NCBI RefSeq assembly: GCF_001306055.1 | Contig: NZ_LGHJ01000028.1 | Span: 1-32,000, forward strand | Origin: Bellilinea caldifistulae | GTDB lineage: Bacteria > Chloroflexota > Anaerolineae > Anaerolineales > Anaerolineaceae | Length of the DNA stretch: 32,000 nt | Reading direction: 5' to 3' | The notes under the pieces: model-generated | Told to the model about the DNA's origin: nothing | Seen by the model: only the letters and a program-made list of their open reading frames with translations | Database searches by the model: none | Shown here: one piece after another, positions 11,915 through 29,497 of the stretch | Layout of the letters: every line of letters starts with the position of its first letter | How positions within the stretch are numbered: position 1 is the stretch's first letter | Translations under genes and position numbers: made by a program

Positions 11915-12622
11915 TTAGCCAAGGATAACTGAATAATTGATACCAATTATCTCTTCACCGCTTGCATCTCGATGTATGCTAAAGGAAGGATTTTCGTAGA
12001 TTGACAAAATAGGTAATTGAATATCAAATGGAAAAATTTCATTTGCCCTGATTAAGTCTTGAAGCGGTAAATATCTGTCCGGAGATTTTAAAATTACTGC
12101 TTCAAATAACCACTCAATCAACTCAGTATTTGAGATTATCCTTGGAGATGATGTGATGAAGCCATTTTCTCTTTGTTCCAGGACTCCCCAATTGAGAAGA
12201 GTTTGAATTATTCGTTCTATTGATCTCTTAATCGTTATCTGATTGCTATATTCTCCTAGAATTCTAGAAATGACCTCTTGCTTTGTGATGGTCTCTTGGA
12301 TTTTCGATAGAGAACCAATTATTTTTACCGTCTGGCTAAATATAGGGAATATACACAAAGACATTCCCCAGTGAAGAGCCAAATGCTCATTAGTGGATAA
12401 ATTGGGTAAAAGGACTACTGCTTTTTCCTTCAATCGTTGGTAAAGTGGTTCTTTGGGAAACCACATATTCGATAAAATGTTTGCTGTTCTTCGCCCTGAT
12501 TGAGGAGCTATCCCTTGCATTATCAGAAAAGGTTTAATCTGAGAGGGATCCCCTTTTTGCATGGCCACATTCAGCGCAAATTCTGCCCACTCATAACGGA
12601 TAAATCGGTCAAAAATGGTCAT
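11915..12622 (-). CDS. all-helical 235-aa protein, BrxA (DUF1819)-like by pattern; last gene of the operon
   Basis: ATG 12622-12620 overlaps the helicase stop codon (ATGA). The segment order resembles BrxA blocks: APQSGRRTANILSNMW / EHLALHWGMSLCIFPIF / ITIKRSIERIIQTLLNWGVLE. This similarity was judged by eye only. Confidence 0.75.
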   Translation of the reverse strand: MTIFDRFIRYEWAEFALNVAMQKGDPSQIKPFLIMQGIAPQSGRRTANILSNMWFPKEPLYQRLKEKAVVLLPNLSTNEHLALHWGMSLCIFPIFSQTVKIIGSLSKIQETITKQEVISRILGEYSNQITIKRSIERIIQTLLNWGVLEQRENGFITSSPRIISNTELIEWLFEAVILKSPDRYLPLQDLIRANEIFPFDIQLPILSIYENPSFSIHRDASGEEIIGINYSVILG

Positions 12623-15600
12623 ATAGCATCCTCGTGTGGTAGAGGTTTGTCTAGAATCTGCCCAAGAACTATCCAAGCCAAACGACGCTCAAGTTTATCA
12701 TGGAGATACTGATTCTGATAACTGCGCAGACATGAGTAGCAACTGGTATCTTGACTGCAACCTTTACATCCTACCACCCGATCATAAGCGCCTTCAAATA
12801 CTTTATACAGATTGTCATAAATCATGCGGACATAACCTGCGCCTCCGGGGGTGTTATCATACAAGATGAATGAGGGTGTACCCTCTCGGTAATACACAAC
12901 CCCGTCCACTTCATTTACAGGTATATCCAATTTTTCCACAGCACCAAATAACAGGGCATAGAGGACCGAATAAATAGTTTTCTCATCTTGAATTGAAATA
13001 CTCAAGTTAAGCTCCAGCACATCGGTCATAAAGCGGTGTCCAAGGTGATAAATTGCATAAGTTCCACTACATTCCTTGCCAGTTTCCGGGTTTTTGTGAT
13101 TGGGTTTCTTGTGACGATGTTGAGAAGGATTAACCACTTCAGCGTATCCGCATGTTCTGCACACTCGAAAGCCATCCCCGTAGCCGTTATTCACCCGCAC
13201 TAACCAACCATATCGGGAATAACCCTTGTAGACGGAGATACCTGATGAGAACTCTGGGTCGATTTCCAGAGGTAAATCTAGTTTTTCGTAGGTGTTCGAT
13301 TGAGTTGTGTAGTGTGAGAAATAAACCTTGCTTGCGTAGATCCGTTCTGGGGGTTGTTCTCCCGGTATATCCGTTTCGCTTGAAGCCACAAAACCAAGTT
13401 CTGGTATAATGAAAGTTCCTGCTAACCTGTTCCTGATATTAACCATCGTCCCACACACAGCACAATGATCAATGGGTGCTGTCTCACCCGCTCTTATATT
13501 CATTCGCTTACAATTTGGACAAACTGCATACGAGAAAGGTTCCCATGATTTTTGGGGATGTTTTTTGATCCCCTTGCTGTACCAAATCCGCTTTGCGGCA
13601 ACCACCTGTCCACCGGGAGCAAATTCAGAAATAGCTATTTGTAAATCACGTTCTAACTGAATATCTTTTGCAATTTCAATATTAAGGTGATTCGTCTGCA
13701 ATGTAACTACATCAGTTGGAAAACCATATTTTGGTAGGACATTCGTAGAACCCAAATACCCTAATAAATCTCGTTCACGAATCTGTTTCTGGATTTGCAT
13801 GTATTTTTGTGCCTGGGAATAATTTCGGTTCGCAGATGCTTGTTGCTCTAAATTTTGGAATTCATTGATTTCTCTCTGAATGGTTTGAACAGATTTATCT
13901 AAAACAGCTTCGTCACTTTCCAGTAAATAAACCTGCCATTCCCAATTTTTCAATTTTAATGTTTCGCGCAGTTCGTCATCATTGGGAATAATTCTCTCAA
14001 GTGCAAGTTCAATTTCAGACGGACGATTTTGAAGGAATTTCTTAAGCAATTCAGGCCCATTAGGGTAAGATATGTTTTCCGGATCCACAAAATCTCCCAC
14101 ATTCCGGTACTCAATGTTGTAATTTTCTTTCACCCATCGGAAAAATGCAGCAAAGACTACCGAATGTAAATGGCGTCGAATAATTTTGTCATTCTTCAGT
14201 GAAATGATGGGTGGACGGATTTTTCCGGAAACCATCGTTTCCGGAGAATCATAAAACATCAAGTCATGAGGACGACGTTGGGCAAAGGTGACTACCATTG
14301 CTACGCTATCCGTCCTACGCCCAGTCCGTCCAGCACGTTGAATGTAGTTTGCACTGGAAGGGGGCATATTGCGCAGTACCACTGCATTCAAGTCTCCAAC
14401 ATCTACCCCTAATTCAAAGGTGGTGGAAGAACTCAGAACATTGATTTTCCCTACAACAAAATCTTTTTGAACTTCTGCTGCTTTTGCAGAGACCCATTGG
14501 GCAGTGTGTTCTTCAGCCTCTAAAGGGACAATGTACTCGTGAAGATATTGGGAACGATACATGTTATCTTTAAGCCATGCACCATGATCACCGAGCGGAT
14601 GCAAGGATCCCATGCACCCGTATGTGGGACACACATTATTCAAATTATGTGGGGTCAGGTTTTGGCATTTATCGCAAATATACCATTTCCCTATACCTTC
14701 ATCTATGGCTGGAATAACTTCCCAGGCTTGATGGTTCAGGCGGTACAATACCCCTTCACCTTTGATGTTTGCTTTTTTCAGCCAAAAGTCTTGCACAGGA
14801 CTGGCGTTTCCTGTGAGATATTCCCAAATTTCCATTAATAACTCGAGACTAAGCGTAAGAACTTTGTCTTCTGCTAACTGAGACTGTTGGCGCCTTAACA
14901 ACCGCGTCAAATAATCAAGGCGCGTATTCTTCATATTGGGTGCAGGACACCAACTATAAATTCCTTGTTGACTTGTTACACTCGCTCCATTATTTCGCAC
15001 ATAGAACAATTTATTTCTGGGCAGAAAGGCATTTTGCCTTTCTGCTAACAAATCAATCCCTTCATCTTCCAACAGATAAGTTACCGCTCCTTGCCGACGG
15101 AGTGTATTTAGCAAAATGGTTAAGAGGTTTTTCGCTTCGTCTGAAGTCAGATTCCACGGAGATTGGTTGAAAACTTCTGGAAGCATCCACCCTGCCCCAA
15201 ATTTTGGTTGGAAATAGACCAGCCCTACCCCTTCGAGACTAATTCGTTTATCTAAACCACTGAATTCTTGCATGAGCCAGGATGCTACCTCTATTCGCTT
15301 GTTCCTGATCGACTCTTCTATATAAAAAACCCCATATTGATCAACCAATTTGATTAGGGGGGGCAAACAATCGGGTACACGCATGGGTTCTCCCATGTCC
15401 AGTTGACTTTGTTGTTTCAACATCTTTGTAATTAAACGACGCTGCAAAATCTTCTTTTGAGCACGTTCCAGATAAGCAGCAAAAAAAGCCGCTTGCTGGC
15501 GATTATCGGAAAAAACCAGCATTTTCCGTCCTTCACCGGGGTATTGACGCTCCGTTTCTTTTCGCGCAGGAGGTACATGCTCATATAAAGCGCCAGCCAG

Positions 15601-17643
15601 AACACTCACCGGAGCATCCTGACCGGTAAGAAAGCGATATACCACCCCGTTCCGGTTGTAAGTTGAACAGGAAGTACATCGAATTAAGGTCTTCCCTTTT
15701 TCCATTTCGATTTTCGCTAATTTCAAGAATGGGACTCCACAATCACAACGTCTTGCGCCCGTTCCAGGAAAATACAAAGCACCACATTTTGGGCAAATTT
15801 CAACGGGATTAGGCTTTTCAGTGCCAACATGAGTATCAATTTCTGCTTTTTCCTCAATCAGGGCATCTTCATCCACTTCAACGTTATCTAATTTCTCTTC
15901 TAAGGAAAAATACTCTACTCGCTTGGCTTCCAGTTCGTTCTGATATAGCACACTGTTTTGAGTGAGGTATTCTAAATCTAAATCGAGACGGACATACTTT
16001 TCATCCGCAATATCTTTACCCGATGTTTCGTTCCCAATCAGGTACGTTACCCCACATCGTGTGCAGTTGGCTATTTCAAACACTCGACTTCCGCAGTGAG
16101 GGCAGAACTTTTGTCGCTTGAGAAACAAAATTGGTTTTGGATTAGGGCTTTGATGTTCAGGCGCATGGGTGTTAAGACAAACAAATGCTCCTTCCAAAGC
16201 CCGAATAAAAACATGATACCTGGCAGGTAAGAGCGGGGCACTTTGAGGCATTTCCCGCGCTAAGATAGCCGCAGATACCAGGTTGGCGAGGGAAGATTGG
16301 GCTTGTTCCTTTGGCAGATCCTCAAAAATAATGCCAGCGATTTCGTTGAACTTATAGGGTTTCTCTCTCAAAAAACTGCGGAGTTTATGGATGCGACCAT
16401 CCCCTCTAAGCACCTGGTAAATATATCTTGGCACTGCCTGTTCCGGGTGAGATTGAGCTTCCTTAGCAGCCTGTGAAAGAATGTTATCAGGAACTCCAGA
16501 AAGTTCATCAGGAATGAATGGCTGTTGACCTTGCCGCCACCCTTCTGCAAGAGAAGCCACTTCAACATACAATTGCTCAGTGCCTTCTCCCCATACATCT
16601 CCTAATTCGCTTTCGGGTTTGCGTTTCCCTAAAACCACATCCTGACGATTGGTGTCTTCAGGAATCCATTCAAAAGGTAAGTTAAATAACCGGGAAGCAA
16701 ACTCAACAATTTTTTGTAAATTCTCAGGACTTTCGTCTCCCAGGGTTGCGCTTGTGGCAATGGCTTGGAGTGTTTTTGGGCTTTTTCGAGTAACACGTTC
16801 CTGTAAACGGCGCAAAAGCATGGCGATTTCTGTACCCTGCGCGCCATCATACACATGGGCTTCGTCCAGCACAATAAATCGCCAGTGCTGTCCGGTTTCC
16901 CCATCAAAAAGCGGAGAGTCTTTCGGACGCAATAAGAGATATTCCAGCATCGCATAGTTGGTCAACAATAGGTGTGGTGGGGTTTGTTGCATTTGCTGAC
17001 GACTGATTAATTCATTGGGTAGGGGCTCCGGGAAAGGACTTTCCCGATGTAATTCTCGGTACAATTGCTCCGCCATATTCTGACCATCTGGAGTCTCTCC
17101 AATATAGCGTCCAAATGTAATAGCAGGATATTGCTTCAATATACTCCGCAAACGATCCATTTGGTCGTTTGCCAGAGCATTCATGGGGTATAACAACATT
17201 CCACGCACCCCCGGCTGGGAAAGCGTGCCGTTTTCTTCTTCCCGAAGCAATGCGTCGAGTATAGGAATTAGAAACGTTTCGGTTTTTCCACTACCAGTAC
17301 CTGTAGTGACCACAACATTACGTCCGTTGCGGACTTTGCGGATGGCTGTCTCTTGATGAAGGTATAATGGACGCTCGTAGTCCAATCCTCCTGGATCACA
17401 CAGGGTTTGAAACTTTTGTGAAAGAATTCCCTCCTGAACCAATTCACGAATGCTCTTTCCTGTCTCAAAAGGTGGGGTAATTTCCAGATACGGTCCCTTG
17501 ATCAATAGGTCTTCTTCTTCCAGGGCTTGGGCAAACTCCTTGCGCAAGCGCTCATCTTGAAAAGGCTTGATGGTCTTCAAGTAGCGAATATAGGTATCCC
17601 TTAGATGGGCTGTGGTGTGAATTGGATGAAGGGTGTTTTTCAT
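12619..17643 (-). CDS. giant SF2 DEAH-box helicase fused to a C-terminal DUF1998 (MrfA-type Zn-binding) domain; DruE / DrmA+DrmB / BrxHII-like (1674 aa)
   Basis: Motif I TTGTGSGKTETF, motif II VLDEAHVYDG, motif III TSATL, motif VI QRAGRTGRR. Zn ribbons lie between the RecA lobes (CPHCG..CTRCG; CPKCG..CDCG). The C-terminus carries CPNCK..CAVCG, CRTCG and GCKGCSQDTSCYSCLRSYQNQYLHDKLERR. AAGGAG SD is present, and the gap to the upstream stop is 2 nt. Confidence 0.95.
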   Translation of the reverse strand: MKNTLHPIHTTAHLRDTYIRYLKTIKPFQDERLRKEFAQALEEEDLLIKGPYLEITPPFETGKSIRELVQEGILSQKFQTLCDPGGLDYERPLYLHQETAIRKVRNGRNVVVTTGTGSGKTETFLIPILDALLREEENGTLSQPGVRGMLLYPMNALANDQMDRLRSILKQYPAITFGRYIGETPDGQNMAEQLYRELHRESPFPEPLPNELISRQQMQQTPPHLLLTNYAMLEYLLLRPKDSPLFDGETGQHWRFIVLDEAHVYDGAQGTEIAMLLRRLQERVTRKSPKTLQAIATSATLGDESPENLQKIVEFASRLFNLPFEWIPEDTNRQDVVLGKRKPESELGDVWGEGTEQLYVEVASLAEGWRQGQQPFIPDELSGVPDNILSQAAKEAQSHPEQAVPRYIYQVLRGDGRIHKLRSFLREKPYKFNEIAGIIFEDLPKEQAQSSLANLVSAAILAREMPQSAPLLPARYHVFIRALEGAFVCLNTHAPEHQSPNPKPILFLKRQKFCPHCGSRVFEIANCTRCGVTYLIGNETSGKDIADEKYVRLDLDLEYLTQNSVLYQNELEAKRVEYFSLEEKLDNVEVDEDALIEEKAEIDTHVGTEKPNPVEICPKCGALYFPGTGARRCDCGVPFLKLAKIEMEKGKTLIRCTSCSTYNRNGVVYRFLTGQDAPVSVLAGALYEHVPPARKETERQYPGEGRKMLVFSDNRQQAAFFAAYLERAQKKILQRRLITKMLKQQSQLDMGEPMRVPDCLPPLIKLVDQYGVFYIEESIRNKRIEVASWLMQEFSGLDKRISLEGVGLVYFQPKFGAGWMLPEVFNQSPWNLTSDEAKNLLTILLNTLRRQGAVTYLLEDEGIDLLAERQNAFLPRNKLFYVRNNGASVTSQQGIYSWCPAPNMKNTRLDYLTRLLRRQQSQLAEDKVLTLSLELLMEIWEYLTGNASPVQDFWLKKANIKGEGVLYRLNHQAWEVIPAIDEGIGKWYICDKCQNLTPHNLNNVCPTYGCMGSLHPLGDHGAWLKDNMYRSQYLHEYIVPLEAEEHTAQWVSAKAAEVQKDFVVGKINVLSSSTTFELGVDVGDLNAVVLRNMPPSSANYIQRAGRTGRRTDSVAMVVTFAQRRPHDLMFYDSPETMVSGKIRPPIISLKNDKIIRRHLHSVVFAAFFRWVKENYNIEYRNVGDFVDPENISYPNGPELLKKFLQNRPSEIELALERIIPNDDELRETLKLKNWEWQVYLLESDEAVLDKSVQTIQREINEFQNLEQQASANRNYSQAQKYMQIQKQIRERDLLGYLGSTNVLPKYGFPTDVVTLQTNHLNIEIAKDIQLERDLQIAISEFAPGGQVVAAKRIWYSKGIKKHPQKSWEPFSYAVCPNCKRMNIRAGETAPIDHCAVCGTMVNIRNRLAGTFIIPELGFVASSETDIPGEQPPERIYASKVYFSHYTTQSNTYEKLDLPLEIDPEFSSGISVYKGYSRYGWLVRVNNGYGDGFRVCRTCGYAEVVNPSQHRHKKPNHKNPETGKECSGTYAIYHLGHRFMTDVLELNLSISIQDEKTIYSVLYALLFGAVEKLDIPVNEVDGVVYYREGTPSFILYDNTPGGAGYVRMIYDNLYKVFEGAYDRVVGCKGCSQDTSCYSCLRSYQNQYLHDKLERRLAWIVLGQILDKPLPHEDAI

Positions 17644-17645
17644 CG

Positions 17646-20600
17646 TTACTCCTTATCAGAAAAAACATCTTGGGGGGAGTGAACAGAAAAGCGAAGAGGA
17701 AGGGTCATTTTGTAAGGGAAAACAATAGGGAAAGTATCATATTGGTGCTGGGTGGTGTGACGATGCCTCTCCCAAGCAATAATACCTTTACAGGTGATAA
17801 ATCGCTTACACTTTGTGCAAATTTGGCCTGCGTTTCTTCCTATAAAACTCAGTTCATTTGCTTCAAGGTCAATAGTTGCTTCCTCGGCAATTGATGTCTC
17901 TTCACGCGTCTCTTCCTCCCTCAAAACAATGTGCAAACGCGGTTTCTCTTTTTCGAGAAGGAAATAATCATTGCTGCTTGAACCTTCAATTTTGACAATT
18001 TTTCCCCAGCCCGCATCACTGAGCACCCAGTATCCCTTATGTACCACTAAATCAGGACAACTGTGTTTGGCTGAGAAAAAGCCCAGTAATCTCCATCGAA
18101 TTGGACTATCTGGCATTTCTCTCAAGAAAGGAAACGAAAATTCAGGATTCGCAAGAAGTACGTTTGCAGCGCCCTCTTCCGAAATTTTTCCCTGCTGCAA
18201 ATAATTTTGCAATATATCCAAACCACGACTATCTGAATTTTTGATGAGCACCTCCAATGCTCTCAGCATGACCAGAGGATTTTTGGACATTCCTGTTACG
18301 AGATAGGCACTTTCCGGGTTCAGAGTTCTTGCATTCACAACAAGATCAAGATACCTTTGCACAAAATTTTTATCTGAATCTTGCTGAAGTCTCAAAAGAG
18401 TTTCTTTCCGGAACATGTTTAGAAGGATAGCTTTCCTGCTCGAAGGGTCAATCTCTGCCAACCAATCCTGCAGAAAGTAAAGCAGTCGCAGGGGAGCACT
18501 GGACCAATTTGAACATAACCATTGGATTTCATGATTAAGCTGGCTGGCATTTTTTTGGCTGTGGTAAATACAGGCTTTTTCCAGATGCAAGGCAAAGGAT
18601 CGTTGAGGATGTATTTGCAGTTGTTCCTCAATTTCGTCTAACCTTTGAGGTGGAGAAACCATCTCTATAAGGATGGAATTCTCCGGTGGTCTCGGAGGTG
18701 GATCTTGCAAATCATACCGTCCCATAGCCACAAATTGAAGGCGATATTGAGAAGGCGGCAAAGAATATTCTTTCGGAATATCCATTTGCCACCAACCCGG
18801 CTCGTTATGTCGCGTGCTGGGAGAAAGATCGTCAGGAACAGGAATCTGAATTGGATCTGACCAGGGTTGCCACAGACCCCAAATACGCACATATCGTTGA
18901 CGCAACGGCTCAGGCTCAAACCAGTGCAACCGCCTGCCTCTGTTCTGGAGAATCTCGATTTCACATTTTTGAATATTAAGATCGCGATGGGCTTGCAAAA
19001 CCGGTAACTCAATGCTTTGCTCATTGAATTGCATTTTCAGGATGAAATATAAGATAGACGCCCTGGAATGGCTTCGTAAAGTATCATGAAATGCATTGAG
19101 TTGAAAAACCAATTCCCGTTGATATGTTTGTTGGGGAGGTTGTACTTGTAGGGTTTCATTCTCGTTGTCATCCGTTAAATGGAGCTCCACAATATCCAAT
19201 TCCATCGCAGAAGGAATTTTCAGGAATAACCGGGGATTGTCGCTTTGGAGTATTTTGGCGAGGGATAAGGATAAAGGCTTATCTTGCCATTCACGGGGTT
19301 TACCGGATATCAATTCTAATGACCACTTCAAGTGTGGAATTTCAATCTTGAAAGGTACCCGAATGATCTCTTTCTCGGTGGGCTTTTCAATTTGCAGAGC
19401 AACCTGTTCGTCTTCCGCAGGTACGTTGATTTGCCACCTGTCGCCTATGTTTTGTATTTCCGCCTCGCTATCTTCCAACAGGGAAAGAGAGAAACCCTCT
19501 GGAAGCCGAATCGAAAACTGCACATCCTTTGCCCCTTGCCAATCAGGAAGATAATAAGGGTGAAGATCTTCCACCTGAATAGAAGAGGGCAAAACACGGA
19601 AGGGGAGTTCTGCTTGAAAACTATTGCCCCGCTGGATTGTAAGATGAAAAGTACCGCAGGGGGCTTCTCCCAGCACCTTATGGAGAGATAATCGAACCAC
19701 ATTGTTTTCCGGAACGTTCTCGCCCGGAAAATCGCCGGCAGAATACTCCCACTTCCCTTGCGGGTTTGCAGCGAAACGAGACTGCAGGTGAATTTTCCAG
19801 CGGCTCAGTTCACTTTCCAAATGCTCAAAATCATGAACAGGGAGTTCCAAACCGGGACTTCCCAGATAGACGGGTTTCTCTTCTATCGGCAGGCTTTGGG
19901 GTAAAAGTATGCCAACAATTTTTGGCTCTTGTGTCCACCGGACAGGCAAAGGGGGGCAAACATCCTGCCCCTGGCGCTGTAAACGAATGAGGCTGGCATT
20001 CCTGAGATCCCACGCTTGGGATTGCCAATTGTCCAAAGGTGGTGGGAAAGGATGTAAATGTTCAACTTCATGAACAGACCCTGAAAACAACAATTCAGCA
20101 TCCGCCGGATAGAAAAGCCACAACGTCTCTGCAGGGATTACCGGGTTGAGAGAACACGCGCTATTATCCCTGTAACGGAAGGCAAAAACAGGCACTTCGG
20201 AAGAGGGCAAAAGACGCAGAGAACGCTTAAAAAGCGTTGTTTCGTTTCCTTCTTCACTTTGCCCTACAAAGGAAATTTCGGCATATGGAGCAAGCGTCTC
20301 CGGCTGGTAGGAAACTTCATCCGTATGTACTTCTGAACCACTGCGTCGAACACGCAGACGAAGGGTTCCTTCTTCCCCAACAGGCTGGGTGCTATCAACA
20401 AGGCGTATCCTCCAGAAAAAACAGACATAACGCGATTGCTCTTCAGAAGAGATAGGTTGGGCAGGCAATTGAATGTTTAAGCCGGGAGCGTAGGGATCAA
20501 AATACAAACGCGGCAAACGCCGGCGAATGGATAATTCAGCCCGGTTTTGCCAGAAATGCTCAAAGGCTTGTACCACATACGGGCGGATACCTAAAGTTGC

Positions 20601-21248
20601 TGCATCGGGAATGGGGTTCCCTTGCACGGCTTCACGCGCCATCTGGCGGCATTTGCTGAAAAAGCGTTGGGCCGGTTCCCCCCCATATTGGAAAAAGTGA
20701 CGCACAACGTCATCCACAAACAATTCAGCCGTATAATGGTTGAGCAATTCTTCCAGTGCTCGACCGTCTTCCAGATCTTTGTAAGGGGGTTTTTGCACCG
20801 AAGGAAGCAAAATGTGCTGAAAGAAATCCGCTAGAGAGTAAGCCGGAATGCCCCCATGAAGACGGATGGGATTTATATATCCTTCTTCGAACTCATTTCG
20901 AAAGTCCCGGAGATTGGGGTACTGCTGAATAATTTCGCGGAACAATCTTCCCCAGTGATGGTTTGGGTGAAATATTGCGACGTGATCTATTTCAAACGCT
21001 TCGGCTACCTTATCCCAAAAACTGCGTTCGTCGTTGAATGCTGCCTTAAATGACAGATAGGTCACAAAAACGGCGGGAAAATGTGTCCCGAAGTTTCGAG
21101 TGGCTTGGGTTAATCCGTACCGACGTATCCATTTTTCCAGCTCTATTTCCAATTCCGCATGCTGTTCCCGAGAAAGCGGAATTTCTCCCAGCAACTGAAT
21201 TTGGCTGAGATAAGGTTCTAAGTAAGTTTCCCATTCGTGAAGGTGCAT
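17646..21248 (-). CDS. 1200-aa protein of unknown function (no catalytic motif recognised); candidate DruH-like or novel component
   Basis: One long uninterrupted ORF embedded in the operon, with a 27-nt gap upstream and a 2-nt gap downstream. The only feature seen is a C-terminal CTKCKRFITC...HRHTTQH Cys/His cluster. Confidence 0.9.
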   Translation of the reverse strand: MHLHEWETYLEPYLSQIQLLGEIPLSREQHAELEIELEKWIRRYGLTQATRNFGTHFPAVFVTYLSFKAAFNDERSFWDKVAEAFEIDHVAIFHPNHHWGRLFREIIQQYPNLRDFRNEFEEGYINPIRLHGGIPAYSLADFFQHILLPSVQKPPYKDLEDGRALEELLNHYTAELFVDDVVRHFFQYGGEPAQRFFSKCRQMAREAVQGNPIPDAATLGIRPYVVQAFEHFWQNRAELSIRRRLPRLYFDPYAPGLNIQLPAQPISSEEQSRYVCFFWRIRLVDSTQPVGEEGTLRLRVRRSGSEVHTDEVSYQPETLAPYAEISFVGQSEEGNETTLFKRSLRLLPSSEVPVFAFRYRDNSACSLNPVIPAETLWLFYPADAELLFSGSVHEVEHLHPFPPPLDNWQSQAWDLRNASLIRLQRQGQDVCPPLPVRWTQEPKIVGILLPQSLPIEEKPVYLGSPGLELPVHDFEHLESELSRWKIHLQSRFAANPQGKWEYSAGDFPGENVPENNVVRLSLHKVLGEAPCGTFHLTIQRGNSFQAELPFRVLPSSIQVEDLHPYYLPDWQGAKDVQFSIRLPEGFSLSLLEDSEAEIQNIGDRWQINVPAEDEQVALQIEKPTEKEIIRVPFKIEIPHLKWSLELISGKPREWQDKPLSLSLAKILQSDNPRLFLKIPSAMELDIVELHLTDDNENETLQVQPPQQTYQRELVFQLNAFHDTLRSHSRASILYFILKMQFNEQSIELPVLQAHRDLNIQKCEIEILQNRGRRLHWFEPEPLRQRYVRIWGLWQPWSDPIQIPVPDDLSPSTRHNEPGWWQMDIPKEYSLPPSQYRLQFVAMGRYDLQDPPPRPPENSILIEMVSPPQRLDEIEEQLQIHPQRSFALHLEKACIYHSQKNASQLNHEIQWLCSNWSSAPLRLLYFLQDWLAEIDPSSRKAILLNMFRKETLLRLQQDSDKNFVQRYLDLVVNARTLNPESAYLVTGMSKNPLVMLRALEVLIKNSDSRGLDILQNYLQQGKISEEGAANVLLANPEFSFPFLREMPDSPIRWRLLGFFSAKHSCPDLVVHKGYWVLSDAGWGKIVKIEGSSSNDYFLLEKEKPRLHIVLREEETREETSIAEEATIDLEANELSFIGRNAGQICTKCKRFITCKGIIAWERHRHTTQHQYDTFPIVFPYKMTLPLRFSVHSPQDVFSDKE

Positions 21249-21275
21249 ACGCCTATTCTCCCCCTTTCCAATTTT

Positions 21276-23999
21276 TTATAAAAGGCTCTGCTGTCTTGGC
21301 TGATCCTCCCAACGCAGGCGCGCGTTGTCGGCATACATTAACAACTGAGAATCATCCTCAAATACCCGTTCCGGAAGGCGATTGGCAACCTGGACAATGG
21401 CAGCGTAATTGCGTTCCTTCCACGCCCGGCTGAAGCCCGCTCGGATGGCTTCCAATCGAAAGGCTTTCAACTTCCCCTTACTCTGCAGATAGGCGGCAAA
21501 CTCGCGCAGTAAACTCTTCTCCCGCAGGGCTTGCAAGTCGCTTTCTTTGGAGGGATCCGGTAACCGCCAGAGCCCCTCTGCATCCTCCAGAAAGTTTTCC
21601 TCCAGCATTGTTTTCAACTCGGGCATGGCTTCGTAGGGCAATTTGCGGCTTTCCTGGTTGAAGCGGATGAGCAAATCCGAGTACGTTTTGGGACCTTCTG
21701 CCAGTTGAACCCTCAACCACTGGATGGCGCTCTTCTCATCCGTGATCAACAGCGGCATTTGCTCTACCCGCTCGGCTTGCAGGCGCAATCGGTCAAACTG
21801 GCTGGCTTGGGGATAGGTGAAAATCATCCCTTCGCGTTCGGCAAAGCGCTCTTTTAAGCCAGCGTAAAATTGCGGCGCAGAGAGGGGCACGGCAAACCCA
21901 TGCTGAATGTGATAGGCAACCATGCGGTCGAACAGTACATAGGGGGCGCGCTCTTGGACGAACTCGAGCAGAACGTCGTTCTTCAGCATCGGCATGGGCA
22001 GGAACTCCAGATGCTGACGCACAAACTCCCAGGCCCCCTCCACCGTACCGGCTTCCAGCGCAAACTGCTGTTCAAATATGGCGGTGGGCTTGTAAGCCGA
22101 GATGATCAGGTCCTGCTTGACGGCGCCAAAGGCGTTGACCTGATTGAATGTTCCTTGTATTTTGTCTATCGTACGTACATCGGCGATCACAAAACCGGCG
22201 CGTAACAGGGCTTCTTGAATGGCGTTCCAGACGGCGTTTTGCGAGTTATGGAACTCTACCGTCATCCAGCGCCCGGGTTTGAGCACGCGGTAGAACTCGC
22301 GGAAGCAGGCTTCCATGAGGGCTTGATATTCGGGCAAGCCCTTGCGCTGGGTCTTGTTGACCACCGCCTCGGGCGCGTTGTTGGTGAAAACGCCCAGCCA
22401 GGCTTCCCAGAGGAAGTTGAGTTCGCTGTACATCAGGTTGGCGCCGAAGGGAGGGTCAATAAAAATGTAATCTAATGAATTATTAGGCAAGTTTAATCTG
22501 TTGCTCGATTGGGTTGATAATAAACCAAAACTATTCTTCTTAGTTCTTATCAGTAGATTTAGAAGTTTATAGAATTTTCTTGAGATAAAAGGAATTGGAT
22601 CTATCTCTCTAATTGTGGATGCAATATATAAAGTTCTAGATAATTTACTAGGTATACCACTTGTCCTTTCTCGGTTTAATTTTGAGGAGCCTTCAGTAAT
22701 TCCTGTAAGTAGCCAAAGCAAATAATTTTTGTGTGGAGATTTTCCCATTTTTTTAAAAATTTCCGCCAGCGCCCATAGATTGCGGCGGGTGTAGAAATGG
22801 TGCACGTGGGTAACTCCCACGTTAAACGGGTCGCTGGTTTTGTCACCCTTCGGCAAAGGATAGGTCGGGAACGGATAAGGAATGTCGCTGTTTTCGATTT
22901 TCTCCAGCAGGGCAAGGTCTGCGGCATCCGGGCGTTTTTCGTAGCGCTTCTTGCCCACGCTGTAGTTGATCAGCACCGGCACCTGCTTGGCTTGGCGCAC
23001 GGTTTGCCCGATGGCGCGGTCGTACTTGGTTTCAAAGGCGCGCTCCACCCGCAGGGTGCGGCTTTCTTTGCGCGGGCTCTTGCTGAGCAGGGCGCCACAT
23101 CCAGGACAGTGCCAATCGTCGCGAATCTGCCCGTTTTCATGATCCACCGCCACGTCCCAGAAGACCATCTCTGCCCCACACTGCGGGCAGAGAAAGACAT
23201 CCGACCAGACGGTATAGTTGATTTTGCCTTTTACCCCCTCACCCCCAGCCCCTCTCCCAGCGGGAGAGGGGGGCGTGTGCCAGGTTTCGTACATCCAGTC
23301 GCATTCTTTTTCTACTTCCCGGAGAATGCGCTGGGCTTCACGCTCAAAGGCGCGCGCATCGGCCGGGGTGTTGTAGTTGTAAGCGATGAACGTGGCGGCG
23401 GGGGAGAGATCAATGAGCACGGCTTTACGCGTCCCCAGGCGGGAAATGGGCTTATCACCTTCCCAGATGATGTCCTGCTCATCCACGCGGTAGCCCAGGC
23501 TCTCCACAGTTCTTTGATCGCCACATAATTGCGCCGCCACGCCGGTCATGCCGGTGCCGCAGAATCCGTCCAGCACAATATCGCCCGGTTCGGTGTAGTG
23601 CAGAATATAGCGCATGATGGCTTTGTGCGGCACTTTGGTGTGATACGAATGGGCATTGTAGATAGGATCGTTCTTACCCTCCGAGACATCTGCGGCAAAT
23701 GGCTCGCGATGGTAGTGGTTCTCGGCATCGTTGGGCAAGCCCATTTTCTCGCGGGTCTGGCGCCGTTCTTCCTGCCATTGCGCCAAAATTTCCTCCATGA
23801 AGGGATTGGGACAAGCCGTGTAGTAGGGTGGATCGGAGAGGTTGAGGATGGCTTCGTCGCTGGCAATGGGAAAGCCGGGAATCTGGCGGAATTGCGCATC
23901 TTTTAGGTGCTGGCATAGTTTCTCCCGCCATTGCTGACGTTCTTCTTCGGAAACCATTGGGGTAGCATTGACTTGCTCAAACAGTTCGTCTTGATGCAT
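21276..23999 (-). CDS. DNA N6-adenine/N4-cytosine methyltransferase (N6_N4_Mtase-like) with permuted motif order and an inserted zinc ribbon (907 aa from ATG 23999; the ORF extends to TTG 24026)
   Basis: HTKVPHKAIMRYILHYTEPGDIVLDGFCGTGMTGVAA is the SAM motif I block. LDYIFIDPPFGANLMY (motif IV) lies about 350 aa later. CPQCG...CPGCG lies between them. ATG 23999 sits 10 nt after the upstream TAA and follows AGGAAG. Confidence 0.9.
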   Translation of the reverse strand: MHQDELFEQVNATPMVSEEERQQWREKLCQHLKDAQFRQIPGFPIASDEAILNLSDPPYYTACPNPFMEEILAQWQEERRQTREKMGLPNDAENHYHREPFAADVSEGKNDPIYNAHSYHTKVPHKAIMRYILHYTEPGDIVLDGFCGTGMTGVAAQLCGDQRTVESLGYRVDEQDIIWEGDKPISRLGTRKAVLIDLSPAATFIAYNYNTPADARAFEREAQRILREVEKECDWMYETWHTPPSPAGRGAGGEGVKGKINYTVWSDVFLCPQCGAEMVFWDVAVDHENGQIRDDWHCPGCGALLSKSPRKESRTLRVERAFETKYDRAIGQTVRQAKQVPVLINYSVGKKRYEKRPDAADLALLEKIENSDIPYPFPTYPLPKGDKTSDPFNVGVTHVHHFYTRRNLWALAEIFKKMGKSPHKNYLLWLLTGITEGSSKLNRERTSGIPSKLSRTLYIASTIREIDPIPFISRKFYKLLNLLIRTKKNSFGLLSTQSSNRLNLPNNSLDYIFIDPPFGANLMYSELNFLWEAWLGVFTNNAPEAVVNKTQRKGLPEYQALMEACFREFYRVLKPGRWMTVEFHNSQNAVWNAIQEALLRAGFVIADVRTIDKIQGTFNQVNAFGAVKQDLIISAYKPTAIFEQQFALEAGTVEGAWEFVRQHLEFLPMPMLKNDVLLEFVQERAPYVLFDRMVAYHIQHGFAVPLSAPQFYAGLKERFAEREGMIFTYPQASQFDRLRLQAERVEQMPLLITDEKSAIQWLRVQLAEGPKTYSDLLIRFNQESRKLPYEAMPELKTMLEENFLEDAEGLWRLPDPSKESDLQALREKSLLREFAAYLQSKGKLKAFRLEAIRAGFSRAWKERNYAAIVQVANRLPERVFEDDSQLLMYADNARLRWEDQPRQQSLL
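23249..23271. repeat. GC-rich perfect palindrome (10-bp arms, 3-nt loop) embedded in frame in the methyltransferase gene
   Basis: CCCCTCTCCC-AGC-GGGAGAGGGG, flanked by C-rich and G-rich runs (23235-23275). It encodes PPSPAGRGAGGEG. Confidence 0.85.
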
Positions 24000-24009
24000 A
24001 TCTCTTCCT

Positions 24010-27000
24010 TTACCAGTCAATCTCAATGCGTACTTTGGTGAGATCCTTATCGCCGATTTTCTTATCCAACAAAGTTTTCAACCGTTGGTAGAGTTCTTCG
24101 ATGGTGCAGGGCATTCCCGGCTGGGTAAGAGCAATCAAGAAGTCGCTGCCTTCCAGCACCACTTTATCCAAACCGCGTAGCGCGTCGTTGATAGCCTCAA
24201 CGAGATTCCTGGATACCGGAGAAGTAAACTCGCCCTTTTCCACGAACTCCTTGATCTGCTCGCGGTAGGGCGATTTGAGCAAAGTGATATTTTCGGCAAC
24301 TTCGGGTTTTTGTAATTCCTCACGCAGCCGGGCAATCCACTTGCTGTGCACCAGGTTCAGGTTTTCTTCTAATTTCTCCAGTCGCTCCACAGCAGAGAAG
24401 GAGAACATTTCACTGCGCGGGTCAAAGCCACAGTGAGGGCATTCGGTGTATTTGGATAAATCCTCAAGCGTAAGGTTCGGACAGGAACGCAATTCCGAAA
24501 ATTCTTTTTGCAAGCGAGTCAGTTCACTGTTGGGCAGGATAATCACCTCTTGTAAGGTAAGCAAATGGCGCCAGTGCGGGTTTTGGGTCAACTTCTGCTT
24601 TCGCTCATCGCCCAAACGGTCGAGCCGCGCTCTGGCATGTAGATTAAGATATGCCTGCGCATAAGACGACCGCAGATTGCTCAGTCCGCCATTCAGACGG
24701 GAATACAGCGAAGGGTCGGCGCGTTGTTGAGGATTTCTTAACCAGGTAAGATGCTCATTCCTCAAGCGCTGAGCCTCGAGATGCCATGGATGATGCTCAG
24801 GAAGATGCAAATCAGCCCGTGTTATGTACTGGAGATGAGATTGTACCGATTGAAGGACATCCCGGAGCATGATAAGAACTTTGAGAGTGTCTCGTCCCTT
24901 CAGTTGTGCTTGCACTTCCCCAACTTCGAGAGAAAACTGCTGCAAACGCCCGGGGGTATTCAAGCGTTGAATCATCTCCAGCAAATTTTTATAGTTATCC
25001 AACGACTTACGATAAGATTGAATTTCATCTGAAGATAGAACAGGCTCTCCCCAATACTGTAAGCCATCCCGCAGTCCATCCATCACCATCACTAGGCGTT
25101 GAAGTTCTTCATTAGCGAACTGATTCAGTTCTTGGACCATGCGTTCATGCTGTTCGGAGTAATCTACCCATTCTGGAGGGAACCCCAGTCCTTGCAAGAG
25201 CGCTTTCAGCGCTTTTTCGGGTATCGGCTTTGGCCGAGAAATAGCAGAAAACTGCATGAAATCTTCAATTTTCAGACGCGCTACTTCATTAAGATCATCT
25301 GAAGTGAATGTTTTTCCCATCCAGTTAATAGTGATGGCGCCTTGACGGAGAAGCGCCGCTAGAACAACCATCAACAGTTCCGGCTCAAGGCCAAACTGAA
25401 CTTCACGCTCTTCATGACGTGGGTCAGGCGGGGCTATTAAGTCCTTGCGGTTGAGTACCTGAGCGGGAGGAAGTGTATCCAATTTATTGAGCACTGCCCG
25501 GGCGTAACGAGATTCCAGAACAGTGAAGACTGGTTTATTATTCTCTTTTCGAAGTAAATCAAGTCCTTCCAGAATACTCTGGGCTTGGATATTCATCGAG
25601 CCACCTGTCATTGCGCGAATTGCCCATTCCGCGGCTTCCGGTAAGGACTTCAAGGTAAGTTGCATGCCGACAAAGGATGGGTATTCGGGGTACTTTTGGT
25701 CAAAAACAGGCTGGAGGATGGCGGAAGCAAGTTGATAGATCTGATCGCGCAAATTGATTTCCTGGCGGAAAAGACGATACTCGCCCTTGTAATCAGCCAC
25801 CCGGCGAGAAACCGCCCCGTATCGAATGGAAAAAGCCTTGTCGAAGTATTCCCGAATCCAGCGGGAAAGGTCTCTCAGATGGTTTTCTGCTTTTTTTTCA
25901 TACTGCATCTTATTACTTCCGGAAGAAATTGTCGACATTTCGCGTGCGCCAGCATATAACCTGAGCGAGCGCAGAAAATCTTCCTGAGGGGACTCAAGTA
26001 CAAAGAAAATTTCATCCGAACGGGGCTGGTCATTTTTTCCGTTAGTTTTGAATAGGTGCAAGAAGTGAATATAAAAGTCGCGCTCCGGGTGGGTGGTGGA
26101 GAGTTCATCGCGCGTACCCAGGAAAATATAACCATCCCGGGTAATTCCATGACCTTGCCAAGGGATCTCAACCTGCCAGATGCGAAAACCGGTCCGGTAG
26201 GTGCTATCGCTTAATTCCAGAAGGCGCCTTAAGGCATCGAAGTAGTAGCGGTCAAGAGTATCCGGATCCAATACAGCGGCACGTTGCTCGATTTGAGCAT
26301 CAAAATCAATGTCTTTATCTAAATCAAGATAATACTGATCGTTTTCCGGATTACGGGAGAGAAATTGCCCGCTAACTGTTCGGGAAATTTCCTGCAGAAC
26401 ATTTTCCACACTGGTCAGTAGGAAAGTTGCATCGGTTTCAGGAATAGGCAGATACAGACACAGACGATCGCGCAGTTCTCTGGGGGTCAATCCAATCGGC
26501 ACACGCAGGTCGCCGGTAGTGAGGCGATGAAGCGAAAGACTGTGGATGATCCGAATAGCGGCATCTCGGTAAATGGGAGAAAGGGCATTACGCACCCGCT
26601 CTTCCAGCACCTGGCTCTTGTCCATCACCTCCCGAATTTCTGGGATTGCTCTGTAAGAAGGGTCTTCGAGAATCAAACGCCAGAATGCATCAAACGAAAT
26701 CAGCCCAGGGCGGTCTTCTGGGACTTCCTGTTGAAGTATTTGACGTATTTCGTGACTGACTGCCTTGAGGGCTTGCCGTTTTTCAATAACTGTCACTCGC
26801 TCGAACATTTCCAAGTATGCCGGGTGAATGGGGAACAACGCAACAAAGTCTTCTAAACGCTCTGCCATTGAGTCGTACAGGGGGGTGAACTTTTGTAAGT
26901 AAGTTCGAATCTGTTGGCGTTGTTTCTCATACTTCGCAAGTAAACGGCGAGAGACGACAAAAGCCACATCTTCGCGGACAATGCGGACTTGTTGATACCG

Positions 27001-27717
27001 ATCACGCACCCGGCGGATTGAATCTGCGGCAAATTGGAAGCGTGGGCTGTCAAACAATGATTCCTGTAACCCGGCTATGAAGCGCAAGTCGGTCGTAGAG
27101 CAAATCTCACCGATTTCTCGAAGAAACGAAAGATCATGGATCAACTCACGTTCATTTCGTCCTTGCAAGTAGTCCAGTAATTCATCAATAACAATCAATA
27201 GGCCCTGTCTGGGGTATTTTGCTTGAAAAGCGTGGATAGCGTTTTGGAGCAAATCTTTGGTGTTGGGAACCTGATTCATGGGCGGGAAATGCACTTCAAC
27301 CCCCATTCGGGCTAGCCCTTCTTGCAAGTATTGGAGGACAATATCCCGCAAAGTCATCGCAGAATTGCCGATTTCCTGGCGGATCACACTGAAGCGACCT
27401 GCAATAGGCTGAAGGCCTTGCTGGACAGCAGGATGAGTGACCTCACTAAGTAATTCGGCATGTTCTGCAATAGCAGAAATAAGCGCCATTAAGTGCGATT
27501 TACCGGTGCCATAGTATCCCACAATGAATAAACCACCGTTATCTTCACTCCGTTCAAGGCTGATAGTAGGCAGGATGCGGAGCAGGATGACATCCGCCAT
27601 GCGGTCAGAAATGACATACGTGCGCACAAGTTTTTCGGCAATACGGTGGTCATCTGCCTCACGGACATGGACTACATTTTCGACGGGTTCGAACTGAACT
27701 AGGTCAGAATACTTCAT
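24010..27717 (-). CDS. BrxC/PglY-like large P-loop ATPase (1235 aa from ATG 27717; an alternative ATG at 27729 overlaps the upstream stop)
   Basis: Walker A is FIVGYYGTGKSHLM at about aa 70. Walker B is LLIVIDELLDYL. The N-terminus (MKYSDLVQFEPVENVVHV...) and the long helical remainder match BREX ATPase architecture. The C-terminus has CPHCG. GAGG lies 6 nt before ATG 27717. Confidence 0.9.
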   Translation of the reverse strand: MKYSDLVQFEPVENVVHVREADDHRIAEKLVRTYVISDRMADVILLRILPTISLERSEDNGGLFIVGYYGTGKSHLMALISAIAEHAELLSEVTHPAVQQGLQPIAGRFSVIRQEIGNSAMTLRDIVLQYLQEGLARMGVEVHFPPMNQVPNTKDLLQNAIHAFQAKYPRQGLLIVIDELLDYLQGRNERELIHDLSFLREIGEICSTTDLRFIAGLQESLFDSPRFQFAADSIRRVRDRYQQVRIVREDVAFVVSRRLLAKYEKQRQQIRTYLQKFTPLYDSMAERLEDFVALFPIHPAYLEMFERVTVIEKRQALKAVSHEIRQILQQEVPEDRPGLISFDAFWRLILEDPSYRAIPEIREVMDKSQVLEERVRNALSPIYRDAAIRIIHSLSLHRLTTGDLRVPIGLTPRELRDRLCLYLPIPETDATFLLTSVENVLQEISRTVSGQFLSRNPENDQYYLDLDKDIDFDAQIEQRAAVLDPDTLDRYYFDALRRLLELSDSTYRTGFRIWQVEIPWQGHGITRDGYIFLGTRDELSTTHPERDFYIHFLHLFKTNGKNDQPRSDEIFFVLESPQEDFLRSLRLYAGAREMSTISSGSNKMQYEKKAENHLRDLSRWIREYFDKAFSIRYGAVSRRVADYKGEYRLFRQEINLRDQIYQLASAILQPVFDQKYPEYPSFVGMQLTLKSLPEAAEWAIRAMTGGSMNIQAQSILEGLDLLRKENNKPVFTVLESRYARAVLNKLDTLPPAQVLNRKDLIAPPDPRHEEREVQFGLEPELLMVVLAALLRQGAITINWMGKTFTSDDLNEVARLKIEDFMQFSAISRPKPIPEKALKALLQGLGFPPEWVDYSEQHERMVQELNQFANEELQRLVMVMDGLRDGLQYWGEPVLSSDEIQSYRKSLDNYKNLLEMIQRLNTPGRLQQFSLEVGEVQAQLKGRDTLKVLIMLRDVLQSVQSHLQYITRADLHLPEHHPWHLEAQRLRNEHLTWLRNPQQRADPSLYSRLNGGLSNLRSSYAQAYLNLHARARLDRLGDERKQKLTQNPHWRHLLTLQEVIILPNSELTRLQKEFSELRSCPNLTLEDLSKYTECPHCGFDPRSEMFSFSAVERLEKLEENLNLVHSKWIARLREELQKPEVAENITLLKSPYREQIKEFVEKGEFTSPVSRNLVEAINDALRGLDKVVLEGSDFLIALTQPGMPCTIEELYQRLKTLLDKKIGDKDLTKVRIEIDW

Positions 27718-27725
27718 GATAAACC

Positions 27726-29420
27726 TCATTTTGTAGATGGTAGTATTTTTTCAAGTAGGCTTTTTGAGCGTTCATGAGCAACAATAATCAGATAGGTTCG
27801 AGCGCGTGAACAGGCAACGTATAGAATCTCATTGATCCAATATGCATCACTGTCTTCAAGCCCGGTCAAAATAACGACCCGATTTTCCAAACCCTTGAAA
27901 CGCGAAGTACTGCTGACGCGAATATCAATGTGACGAGAGGTTTTATCACTCCACTCCCGAAGGATGAAATTTCCCAACTTCCTCCCAGGATTGAATATGG
28001 TATGTTCTGGTGCCCGCGTGGTCAGCAATGTGATATGTCTTGGCTCTACCTTTTCGGTATTTACCAGACGATCTAAAGATTTTCTAACAATTTCTTCTTG
28101 TTGGGCCGAATTAGAGAAGAAATACACTTCGGGAGAGAGACCTACTGGACCATAACACACAAGTTCGTTTGAAGCAGTATGAAATTCTTTAACCACATTA
28201 TGGATAGACTGGGTATTCCGGCAGTTCTCATTCAAAATAAACGGGGGGATCTTCAACCAATTATCCAGATCTTTGAGACGATGATAGATATTCTGATTAT
28301 TATCATAGAAGACATAGAAGATACCCTTCTCACCGTCATGAAGAGCCATCATTAGAGTTTTAAGCCATTCTATATGAAAGTCTTGTCCTTCATCTACAAT
28401 AATGGCATCATATTGAGTTCCTAAATTCTCTAAAGCCTCCAAAAGCATTTCGGGTAAGACATTATTATAGTAATCCTCATCATTTAGAAAAGAACGATAA
28501 CCCAATCCAGCATCCTTCGCCAATTTTGTGCATAGTCCATGAAAATGAAATACATCAACTTCTTGTGGCGCAACTTCTCGTAAGTATTCAGCTAGAGGTA
28601 CATTAAAACAGACCAGTAACGTTGCAAAGCCCTGTTCTGATAATTGGCGTGCTTTTTCCAAAGCCAGCATGGTTTTTCCAGAGCCTGCACATCCTTCGAT
28701 GAGTGCACGTCGTTGCCGTTGGATGAATTGCAACAGAGCCATTTGTTGTTCGGTTAATTCAATAATTTTTTGCTCCTCATATTCAAGTTGTACGCCCATT
28801 GGGGTACTCAGCGTAATAGAATTTGCAAGAAAAGACTCAAGAATCTCAATCCCTTGTTTTCCCAACGCGCCGAATTTATTTCCATCTCTATGGAACCAGT
28901 CAAAAGTCTGTTCAATTTTATCTAACAGGTTTCTTAGATCCACCGCATCTATTATCAGTTCACGTGACAGGTCCGGACGTATGAGAATTTTTTCGGCGAT
29001 TACATCTGGAAATACAACCGAATAAGCAATATTGATATAACGATTTCCCCAAGAGGGTAATTCTCTTAACTTGGAAATCATAGCCCCCTTGCTTCTTCGG
29101 AGTTGATTTACAGGGTCTTTGATAGGATGCTCTTGTCCATAACGATCTTTGCTATACCATTGCTGAAGATTGGCATCATAATGGATCTGTCCCCCTTTTA
29201 CTTCTAAAATCAAAATACCTTTATTGGGGTGGGCAATAATAAAATCTGCTTCTCCGTCTTCTACACCTTGTTGAAGACTACGTATTTGCCAGGCCACGTG
29301 GTAGAACACGGTGTAATTATCGGGTAAGGTGGATAAGGCCGCGTAAACCTTCTTTTCTGCCGATAGCTTTTCATCTTTCAGTGCCCATTCAGGGAAGTGC
29401 TGAGGGTACATTCTTGCCAT
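27726..29420 (-). CDS. NERD nuclease-related domain fused to a UvrD/RecD-like SF1 helicase (564 aa from ATG 29420; start uncertain, ORF open to 29507)
   Basis: NERD block GEADFIIAHPNKGILILEVKGG. SF1 motifs GCAGSGKT, AIIVDEGQDF and YVACSRARTYLIIV. Confidence 0.9.
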   Translation of the reverse strand: MARMYPQHFPEWALKDEKLSAEKKVYAALSTLPDNYTVFYHVAWQIRSLQQGVEDGEADFIIAHPNKGILILEVKGGQIHYDANLQQWYSKDRYGQEHPIKDPVNQLRRSKGAMISKLRELPSWGNRYINIAYSVVFPDVIAEKILIRPDLSRELIIDAVDLRNLLDKIEQTFDWFHRDGNKFGALGKQGIEILESFLANSITLSTPMGVQLEYEEQKIIELTEQQMALLQFIQRQRRALIEGCAGSGKTMLALEKARQLSEQGFATLLVCFNVPLAEYLREVAPQEVDVFHFHGLCTKLAKDAGLGYRSFLNDEDYYNNVLPEMLLEALENLGTQYDAIIVDEGQDFHIEWLKTLMMALHDGEKGIFYVFYDNNQNIYHRLKDLDNWLKIPPFILNENCRNTQSIHNVVKEFHTASNELVCYGPVGLSPEVYFFSNSAQQEEIVRKSLDRLVNTEKVEPRHITLLTTRAPEHTIFNPGRKLGNFILREWSDKTSRHIDIRVSSTSRFKGLENRVVILTGLEDSDAYWINEILYVACSRARTYLIIVAHERSKSLLEKILPSTK

Positions 29421-29497
29421 AAATAACCTGCGAGTCAAGGAATAGATTTTTGGAATAAGAATTTCGCTCAGGAAAGACTGTATAGGCCAAAAACTCA

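Follow-up and report, generated by a model that had tools for sequence, protein, structure and literature searches.

Does an operon that combines parts of different anti-phage systems encode one system or two? The question is raised by a 32,000-nucleotide (nt) stretch of the genome of Bellilinea caldifistulae, a member of the Anaerolineae in the Chloroflexota (positions 1 to 32,000 of contig NZ_LGHJ01000028.1, here called the window), in which six long open reading frames (ORFs) lie tightly packed on the minus strand at 11915-29420/29507, the upper limit depending on the start codon of the first gene. The operon is collinear with type 3 bacteriophage exclusion (BREX-3) apart from two swaps: a NERD-superfamily 1 (SF1) helicase stands in place of BrxF, and a 1200-amino-acid (aa) protein followed by a DruE-type helicase stands in place of BrxHII and PglZ. 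An earlier note on this DNA had seen an echo of BREX-3 in the array, and the collinearity bears this out. On balance, we favour the view that the six genes form one composite, integrated, methylation-based anti-phage system derived from type-3 BREX. This view draws on gene content, intact catalytic motifs, collinearity, co-variation and co-divergence, from which we infer function.

Six genes in BREX-3 order

The ORF listing confirmed six tightly spaced minus-strand genes:

27726-29507, minus strand: gene 1, NERD domain fused to an SF1 helicase; likely start ATG at 29420
24010-27729, minus strand: gene 2, BrxC; likely start at 27717
21276-24026, minus strand: gene 3, PglXI; likely start at 23999
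17646-21248, minus strand: gene 4, the 1200-aa protein; in Druantia III, DruH holds the same place, directly upstream of DruE
12619-17643, minus strand: gene 5, DruE-type helicase of 1674 aa with no nuclease domain after it
11915-12676, minus strand: gene 6, BrxA-like small DNA-binding protein; likely start at 12622

For each ORF, the listing takes the start codon that lies furthest upstream. Conservation in homologue alignments starts only at the internal ATGs 29420, 27717, 23999 and 12622, in agreement with the start codons chosen in the earlier note. These starts leave 2-27 nt between neighbouring genes; if the longest ORFs are taken, the NERD-helicase and BrxC genes overlap by 4 nt. Annotated plasmid loci confirmed the canonical BREX-3 order as brxF-DUF6079-methyltransferase-helicase-pglZ-BrxA. 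Profile searches upheld all domain calls that had been made by eye (NERD with SF1 helicase, BrxC, PF01555-type methylase, DEAH helicase with DUF1998, BrxA, and a 1200-aa protein without a match).

Three of the genes are BREX-3 parts. Gene 2 encodes a BrxC/PglY-type AAA+ ATPase that matches Pfam DUF6079 (E = 0) with residues 5-1237 against profile positions 1-1237 of 1238. The only PADLOC models to match it are those for BrxC (PDLC02482, E = 0) and SspC, and it is 38% identical to BrxC of the annotated BREX-3 plasmid loci. Gene 3 encodes a PglXI-type N6-adenine DNA methyltransferase (PADLOC PglXI, E = 0; Pfam N6_N4_Mtase, 7.5e-19). Its motif I (FCGTGMTG, from residue 154) precedes CPQCG...CPGCG (280-310) and motif IV (DPPFG, from 524), all of them conserved, and this order justifies the word 'permuted' that had been applied to it relative to PF01555. 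Between motifs I and IV lies an insert of roughly 350 aa with two CxxC pairs; motif I before motif IV and a zinc-finger insert are also features of the published BrxXI description (PMC12839542). Gene 6 matches PADLOC BrxA models at 1.2e-39 and 4.1e-34. BrxA closes the array in 11 related loci and occupies the same place in the BREX-3 plasmid loci.

The first gene occupies the BrxF position of canonical BREX-3, and the reported absence of BrxF stands. It encodes a NERD (PD-(D/E)xK) nuclease domain fused to an SF1/UvrD-like helicase, with matches to PADLOC RTasNERD-Hel (2.8e-97) and NERD+UvrD (1.7e-33) and to Pfam NERD (2.6e-12), AAA_19 and UvrD_C_2. Motif conservation was measured across 12-24 homologues per gene, and the catalytic motifs of all four enzymes proved at least 95% conserved: GEADF...LEVKGG, Walker A GCAGSGKT and DEGQDF in the NERD-helicase (13 homologues), Walker A GTGKSH and DELL in BrxC, the motifs of PglXI given above, and GTGSGKTE, DEAH and QRAGRTGRR in the DruE-type helicase.

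This last enzyme, the product of gene 5, belongs to the YprA family of superfamily 2 (SF2) DEAH helicases; it contains several zinc modules of the CxxC type and, towards the C terminus, an MZB/DUF1998 domain (residues 1562-1639; Pfam also reports DEAD and Helicase_C). PADLOC DruE models match it at 1e-216 to 1e-134 (DruE1 1.1e-216, DruE3 4.3e-189), and the matches to DrmA are weak by comparison (1.8e-20 versus 1e-216). The protein stops 35 aa past DUF1998, with no phospholipase D (PLD) match and no C-terminal extension. E. coli DruE carries C-terminal PLD domains (PMC13192584). According to a survey of YprA helicases, members of the 'Druantia Type III-like' branch most often have no nuclease domain (PMC12458937), and only DExD/H, helicase-C and DUF1998 domains are reported for the 1667-aa DruE of M. 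smegmatis (PMC13316683).

Of the six genes, PglXI tracks the divergence of the others least closely (Spearman 0.56-0.67), and one related locus (L016, 3759-9986) carries tandem PglXI copies separated by a 255-aa ORF without a Pfam match. Together, these two observations hint that PglXI undergoes specificity switching or exchange. In another locus (L046, 13727-19889) a 6.2-kb stretch matches PglXI.

The 1200-aa protein

The product of gene 4 is 100% identical to hypothetical protein BECAL_03056. It has no match in Pfam, PADLOC or NCBIfam; it and 37 relatives share no match in Pfam or PADLOC at E<=1, and PDB sequences searched with the family profile returned only noise (E about 0.14). An AlphaFold2 model built on 67 homologues (predicted local distance difference test, pLDDT, 87.9) divides the protein as follows:

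1-235: helical N-terminal domain (NTD)
about 245-862: all-beta, immunoglobulin (Ig)-like beta array
866-1061: second helical domain
C terminus: beta domain with a conserved C2H2-like zinc site, C1144-x2-C1147...H1162

Foldseek searches of this model against PDB and BFVD matched only tandem Ig and fibronectin type III arrays, such as those of titin, CD109 and phage tail proteins. Conservation is highest in the NTD, where W78, H131-G132-G133, P135, L139 and F143 are invariant. Modelled in isolation it reached a pLDDT of 94.4, and Foldseek found no PDB fold match for it (best E 0.83).

A search of 1.84 billion cluster representatives recovered 1928 family members at E<=1e-3 and 789 at E<=1e-30; those labelled with an organism are mostly Chloroflexota. 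With about 1,900 clusters at 50% identity, this is a large unannotated family of partners for DruE-type helicases, lying outside DruH as currently recognised. Its members evolve faster than the helicase next to them (mean identity 31% versus 52% for DruE). The DruH sensor has likewise been reported as fast-evolving and Ig-rich (PMC13192584). The 1200-aa protein parallels DruH in these two respects, the Ig-rich stretch being in its middle, and also in size and position.

We make no claim of homology to DruH. Ten PADLOC DruH3 models match the E. coli plasmid DruH (E 0 to 1e-20) and miss the 1200-aa protein and its 37 relatives at E<=1, and comparisons of the family with full-length E. coli DruH by hmmsearch and phmmer were negative. 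The local Pfam gives 0 matches for E. coli DruH itself, which makes a Pfam negative for YjiT domains uninformative. Alignment of the family profile with a YjiT/DruH alignment by hhalign produced a long collinear alignment that pairs invariant W78 with W89, HGG with EGG and P135 with P142, and the GG pair is a loss-of-function site in E. coli DruH. Its score of 28.8 is one that we count as within the null and not above the controls (column-shuffled 18.7 +/- 3.2, maximum 28.2; reversed 27.8). The echo of Druantia noted earlier thus holds for the arrangement, a large unknown protein followed by a DruE-type helicase, and fails for the identity of the large protein, which these sequence tests do not recognise as DruH. 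We regard the 1200-aa protein as a DruH-like partner whose homology is unproven.

The family also extends beyond Chloroflexota. A 967-aa protein encoded on a Nostoc plasmid beside a 2097-aa DruE-like helicase matches the 1200-aa hidden Markov model (HMM; per-sequence E 3.7e-9, for a search space of one sequence), and the family thus partners DruE-type helicases in a cyanobacterium too. In this locus (L037, 8173-18294) the helicase comes after two proteins, one of 307 aa and the 967-aa one, which is annotated 'ParA'. In a Clostridium butyricum plasmid (L036, 8783-16668) a 1069-aa protein, which does not match the family HMM, overlaps a DruE-like helicase by 4 nt. These two are the closest plasmid relatives of the DruE-like helicase (31% identity for L036, 30% for L037), and both follow large unannotated proteins. 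Some homologues of the 1200-aa protein carry added domains: an RNA polymerase alpha C-terminal domain and sigma-70 region 4 in P0091 and P0106 (in P0091 the family match starts at residue 807, so that the added domains are N-terminal), and Rex-like CoA-binding and DNA-binding domains in P0104. The sources of P0283 and P0291 label both as sigma factors. The added domains suggest a link of the family to DNA or RNA polymerase binding.

Neighbourhoods of related loci and the reading of the operon

We compared 35 loci seeded by the 1200-aa family, with one genome per species, and 80 metagenome loci seeded by BrxC. The complete array of six genes, in the same order, was found again in at least 13 genome loci and 9 metagenome loci. 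The operon is therefore not a chance arrangement, and the gene order proposed for it is conserved in other genomes. No seventh gene is conserved alongside the six in the related loci. The 1200-aa gene adjoins the DruE gene in every 1200-aa-seeded locus whose contig reaches that far.

The exchanged parts vary together. In 17 of the 80 BrxC-seeded loci the NERD-helicase gene lies upstream of BrxC; all 17 are of the DruE type, and their BrxC proteins are 44-89% identical to that of the window. Here PglXI is followed by the 1200-aa gene in nine of ten informative loci, and the 1200-aa gene by DruE in all eight whose contigs reach it. In 61 of the 80, BrxF lies upstream, BrxC is 37-45% identical to that of the window, and PglXI is followed by BrxHII-PglZ-BrxA where the contig extends far enough. 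None of these 61 BrxF-type loci has the 1200-aa and DruE pair after PglXI, and tblastn with two canonical PglZ sequences and one canonical BrxHII found neither gene in the NERD-type loci. BrxF was found only in PglZ-containing loci, and no mixed architecture was seen among the 80. The six genes also diverge in step, their pairwise distances being correlated (Spearman 0.56-0.93).

These patterns suggest a division of labour that may operate as follows. From BREX-3 the operon would retain the module for self-marking and recognition: BrxC, BrxA and PglXI, whose internal zinc-finger insert would serve target recognition. In place of the execution module of BREX-3, made up of PglZ and the Snf2 helicase BrxHII, it would have taken up the Druantia-III-like pair, and in place of BrxF the NERD-SF1 helicase. 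PglXI, together with BrxC and BrxA, would methylate a host motif. The trigger could then be unmethylated DNA entering the cell, or a phage protein that the Ig-rich protein recognises; it would license the DruE helicase for loading onto 3' single-stranded DNA in replication intermediates. Cleavage would be supplied by the NERD-helicase, to which we assign it because DruE has no nuclease domain here, and phage DNA replication would be blocked.

The scheme bears on two questions about BREX, namely how it stops phage DNA once unmethylated sites are recognised and what PglZ contributes. If the proposed scheme is true, PglZ with BrxHII and the Druantia-like pair would be functionally interchangeable, and both the BREX restriction step and Druantia licensing would become directly testable. 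The replacement of PglZ and BrxHII (and BrxF) while BrxC-PglXI-BrxA were kept suggests that the BREX core can be carried between systems as a discrimination module, and the Druantia-type pair likewise as an effector. That the locus represents a new defence type, found mainly in Chloroflexota, in which BrxC-PglXI-BrxA of BREX-3 is wired to DruE, a NERD nuclease-helicase and a new Ig-rich sensor family, is a proposal whose chances we put just short of even.

Several observations weigh against a single integrated system. The main alternative is two uncoupled ones: an autonomous Druantia-III-like pair in or beside a PglZ-less, possibly defective BREX-3 remnant. Many genomes have the pair by itself: in about 11 of 28 informative loci there is no BREX gene within 10 kb, and some of these loci adjoin housekeeping genes; a few 1200-aa-seeded loci have the NERD-helicase together with the pair. 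Pair-only and six-gene loci are interleaved on a DruE neighbour-joining tree (unbootstrapped), which implies repeated gain or loss of the BREX part. Given the stand-alone pairs and this interleaving, the pair may be autonomous and the BREX genes a separable add-on. In keeping with this, the two-gene DruH-DruE system of M. smegmatis suffices for defence (PMC13316683), and defence operons often harbour further, embedded defence genes (bioRxiv 10.1101/2024.01.29.577857). A relative of the window (L041, 9605-11300; BrxC 89% identical) carries such a defence-within-defence insertion, an AbiEi/AbiEii toxin-antitoxin pair (AbiEii 3.6e-39) between PglXI and the 1200-aa gene. Another locus (L042, 13708-18371) has the NERD-helicase, BrxC and PglXI without the pair, directly followed by an opposite-strand ABC transporter, and is either a truncated array or a pair-less variant. 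We also note that a sensor role of the 1200-aa protein would be an analogy with DruH, and that the role of the NERD nuclease is a guess from its being the one recognisable nuclease in the operon. However, simple insertion predicts loci in which PglZ and BrxHII accompany the pair (seen in 0 of 61) and NERD loci that lack it (the pair is present in 9 of 10). The conserved catalytic motifs show that the BREX part is not a decaying remnant, and the co-divergence of the six genes and the 2-27-nt gaps also speak against two separate systems. We regard two uncoupled systems as less likely than the composite system, albeit a serious alternative to it.

Far less probable is a canonical BREX-3 locus in which the 1200-aa protein hides a diverged PglZ and the 1674-aa helicase is BrxHII. 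Gene order and gene number match BREX-3 on this account. Yet the modelled 1200-aa protein runs from all-alpha to all-beta, to all-alpha and then to beta, and its only fold matches are Ig arrays. Neither AlphaFold2 nor Foldseek revealed the alkaline-phosphatase alpha/beta fold of PglZ, so that a hidden PglZ, the outcome on which the earlier note would have given up its proposal, is ruled out as far as these tools reach. The tblastn searches for PglZ in NERD-type loci point the same way, and the helicase is of the YprA/DruE type with DUF1998 (1e-216) and not Snf2/RapA-like as BrxHII is. We give this account only a very slim chance. Membership in Hma and its DUF499-containing BREX relatives, DISARM, ARMADA or TALON is scarcely more probable. 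All share the theme of helicase, methylase and ATPase, and DISARM, ARMADA and TALON have a YprA helicase in common with the operon, TALON also a NERD domain and a Chloroflexota host range (PMC12458937). Against this, the ATPase here belongs to DUF6079 and not to DUF499 as in Hma (PMC12839542), the Snf2 proteins HmaA, DrmD and ArmA are missing, as are the PLD protein DrmC and a split DrmB, the helicase has neither a Vsr nor an RNase H tail, and there are no TPR-CSD or TBP genes.

Genomic setting and comparison with known systems

Over most of its length the operon block has a G+C content of 39-52%, compared with 54-65% in the neighbouring 2-11 kb. Other features around it are:

29721-30593, plus strand: tyrosine recombinase gene (Phage_integrase 1e-36), divergent from the operon promoter
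6860-7678, plus strand: tyrosine recombinase gene (Phage_integrase 7e-41)
29631-29658, minus strand: candidate sigma-70-like promoter TTGAAA-16-TATACT upstream of gene 1 (10/12 matches, top site of the scan)

The low G+C content and the two recombinase genes that bracket the region fit a horizontally acquired island, and this sequence composition suggests that the island is mobile. The recombinase gene is not conserved in the related loci of the neighbourhood comparison. In the promoter scan the overall number of sites was not above the shuffled expectation, and TTGAAA-16-TATACT remains a candidate. The 22-nt palindrome GCAGGGCTACCCAGCCCTGCCC is repeated at 8895-8916, 10703-10724 and 11805-11826; two of the copies are exact and one matches at 77%, and the third site lies some 90 nt past the BrxA stop. 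A repetitive extragenic palindromic (REP)-like element or a terminator hairpin is a possible reading. An RHS-repeat protein of 1795 aa is encoded at 1152-6539 on the minus strand (RHS_repeat 4e-124, DUF6531), with two small ORFs without Pfam match downstream (853-1155 and 134-778), and may be a polymorphic toxin with an immunity gene. On the plus strand, a small ORF at 9925-10434 contains a SWIM zinc finger (1.2e-6); the stretch around it is high in G+C and has many spurious ORFs that overlap one another.

Among known systems, BREX-3 is the closest match in gene order. The operon shares with it a full-length BrxC/DUF6079, a PglXI with an internal four-Cys insert and a terminal BrxA (Goldfarb 2015; PMC12839542), with identical order and strand at positions 2, 3 and 6. 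It differs in having no PglZ, the gene that defines BREX (no PADLOC, Pfam or NCBIfam match in any of the six proteins), no Snf2/RapA-like BrxHII, its only SF2 helicase being of the YprA/DruE type, and a NERD-SF1 helicase as first gene instead of BrxF, an inactive STAND P-loop protein. The statement that the operon has no PglZ, PLD or SNF2 component withstood profile searches, Foldseek and tblastn.

Druantia III supplies the second likeness: a large, fast-evolving, Ig-rich protein immediately upstream of a DruE of about 1670 aa that ends in DUF1998, the two always adjacent and often alone. Especially close, by their descriptions, are the 'Type III-like' branch without a nuclease (PMC12458937) and the two-gene system of M. 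smegmatis, with a DruH of 1132 aa and a DruE of 1667 aa (PMC13316683). In contrast to Druantia III, the 1200-aa protein is not detectably DruH (YjiT/STY4851 family) by sequence, the C-terminal PLD pair of E. coli type III-A DruE is absent, and the genes around the pair encode a methylase, an ATPase, BrxA and a NERD helicase.

Like Dpd, BRIGADE, ARMADA and DISARM, the operon couples a YprA helicase to a DNA-modification module and BREX-derived proteins (PMC12458937). BREX-like parts in those systems include DpdHI/BrxC in Dpd and PglX-like and BrxHII-like proteins in ARMADA and DISARM (PMC12458937). The modifier here is PglXI rather than PglX/YeeA-like or 7-deazaguanine genes, and the operon has a true BrxC and BrxA and a NERD-SF1 helicase, with no BrxHII-like Snf2 protein and no PLD or Vsr nuclease. 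The resemblance to DISARM does not go beyond the shared YprA/DUF1998 helicase, in which DUF1998 is fused to the helicase and is not a separate DrmB; the PLD protein DrmC and the Snf2 protein DrmD are absent. ARMADA differs in its Snf2 protein ArmA, its PglX/YeeA-like modifier (here a PF01555-type PglXI) and its Vsr tail, and a true ARMADA I locus that we looked at for comparison (L122) has a different layout. TALON has the TPR-CSD and TBP genes and an inactive RNase H tail on the helicase; in the operon, the NERD domain is fused to an SF1 helicase.

The suggestion that the locus might belong to Hma has to be given up. Hma consists of an Snf2 helicase, a methylase and a DUF499 ATPase (PMC8565338, PMC12839542), and PglZ-less BREX-related systems do exist (PMC12839542). 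A PglZ-less set of helicase, methylase and AAA+ ATPase related to BREX-3 is common ground. Yet Hma has three genes, with the DUF499 ATPase HmaC and the Snf2 helicase(-nuclease) HmaA, and the operon has six, with a full-length DUF6079/BrxC and a YprA helicase.

No defined subtype thus accommodates the full gene set, as the earlier note had concluded. The locus fails BREX on PglZ, BrxHII and BrxF and Druantia III on DruH, and is not Hma or a related BREX-like system, DISARM, ARMADA or TALON. Current tools (PADLOC 2.0 models, NCBIfam) would leave it as an incomplete BREX and an orphan DruE, and our literature search found no paper describing a BREX-3/DruE hybrid. The idea behind it is not categorically new, since YprA helicases are known to recombine with BREX-derived parts, module swapping among BREX, DISARM, Dpd, Druantia and ARMADA has been published (PMC12458937), and PglZ-less BREX relatives have been described (PMC12839542). 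We read the locus as an unclassified BREX-3/Druantia-like hybrid subtype.

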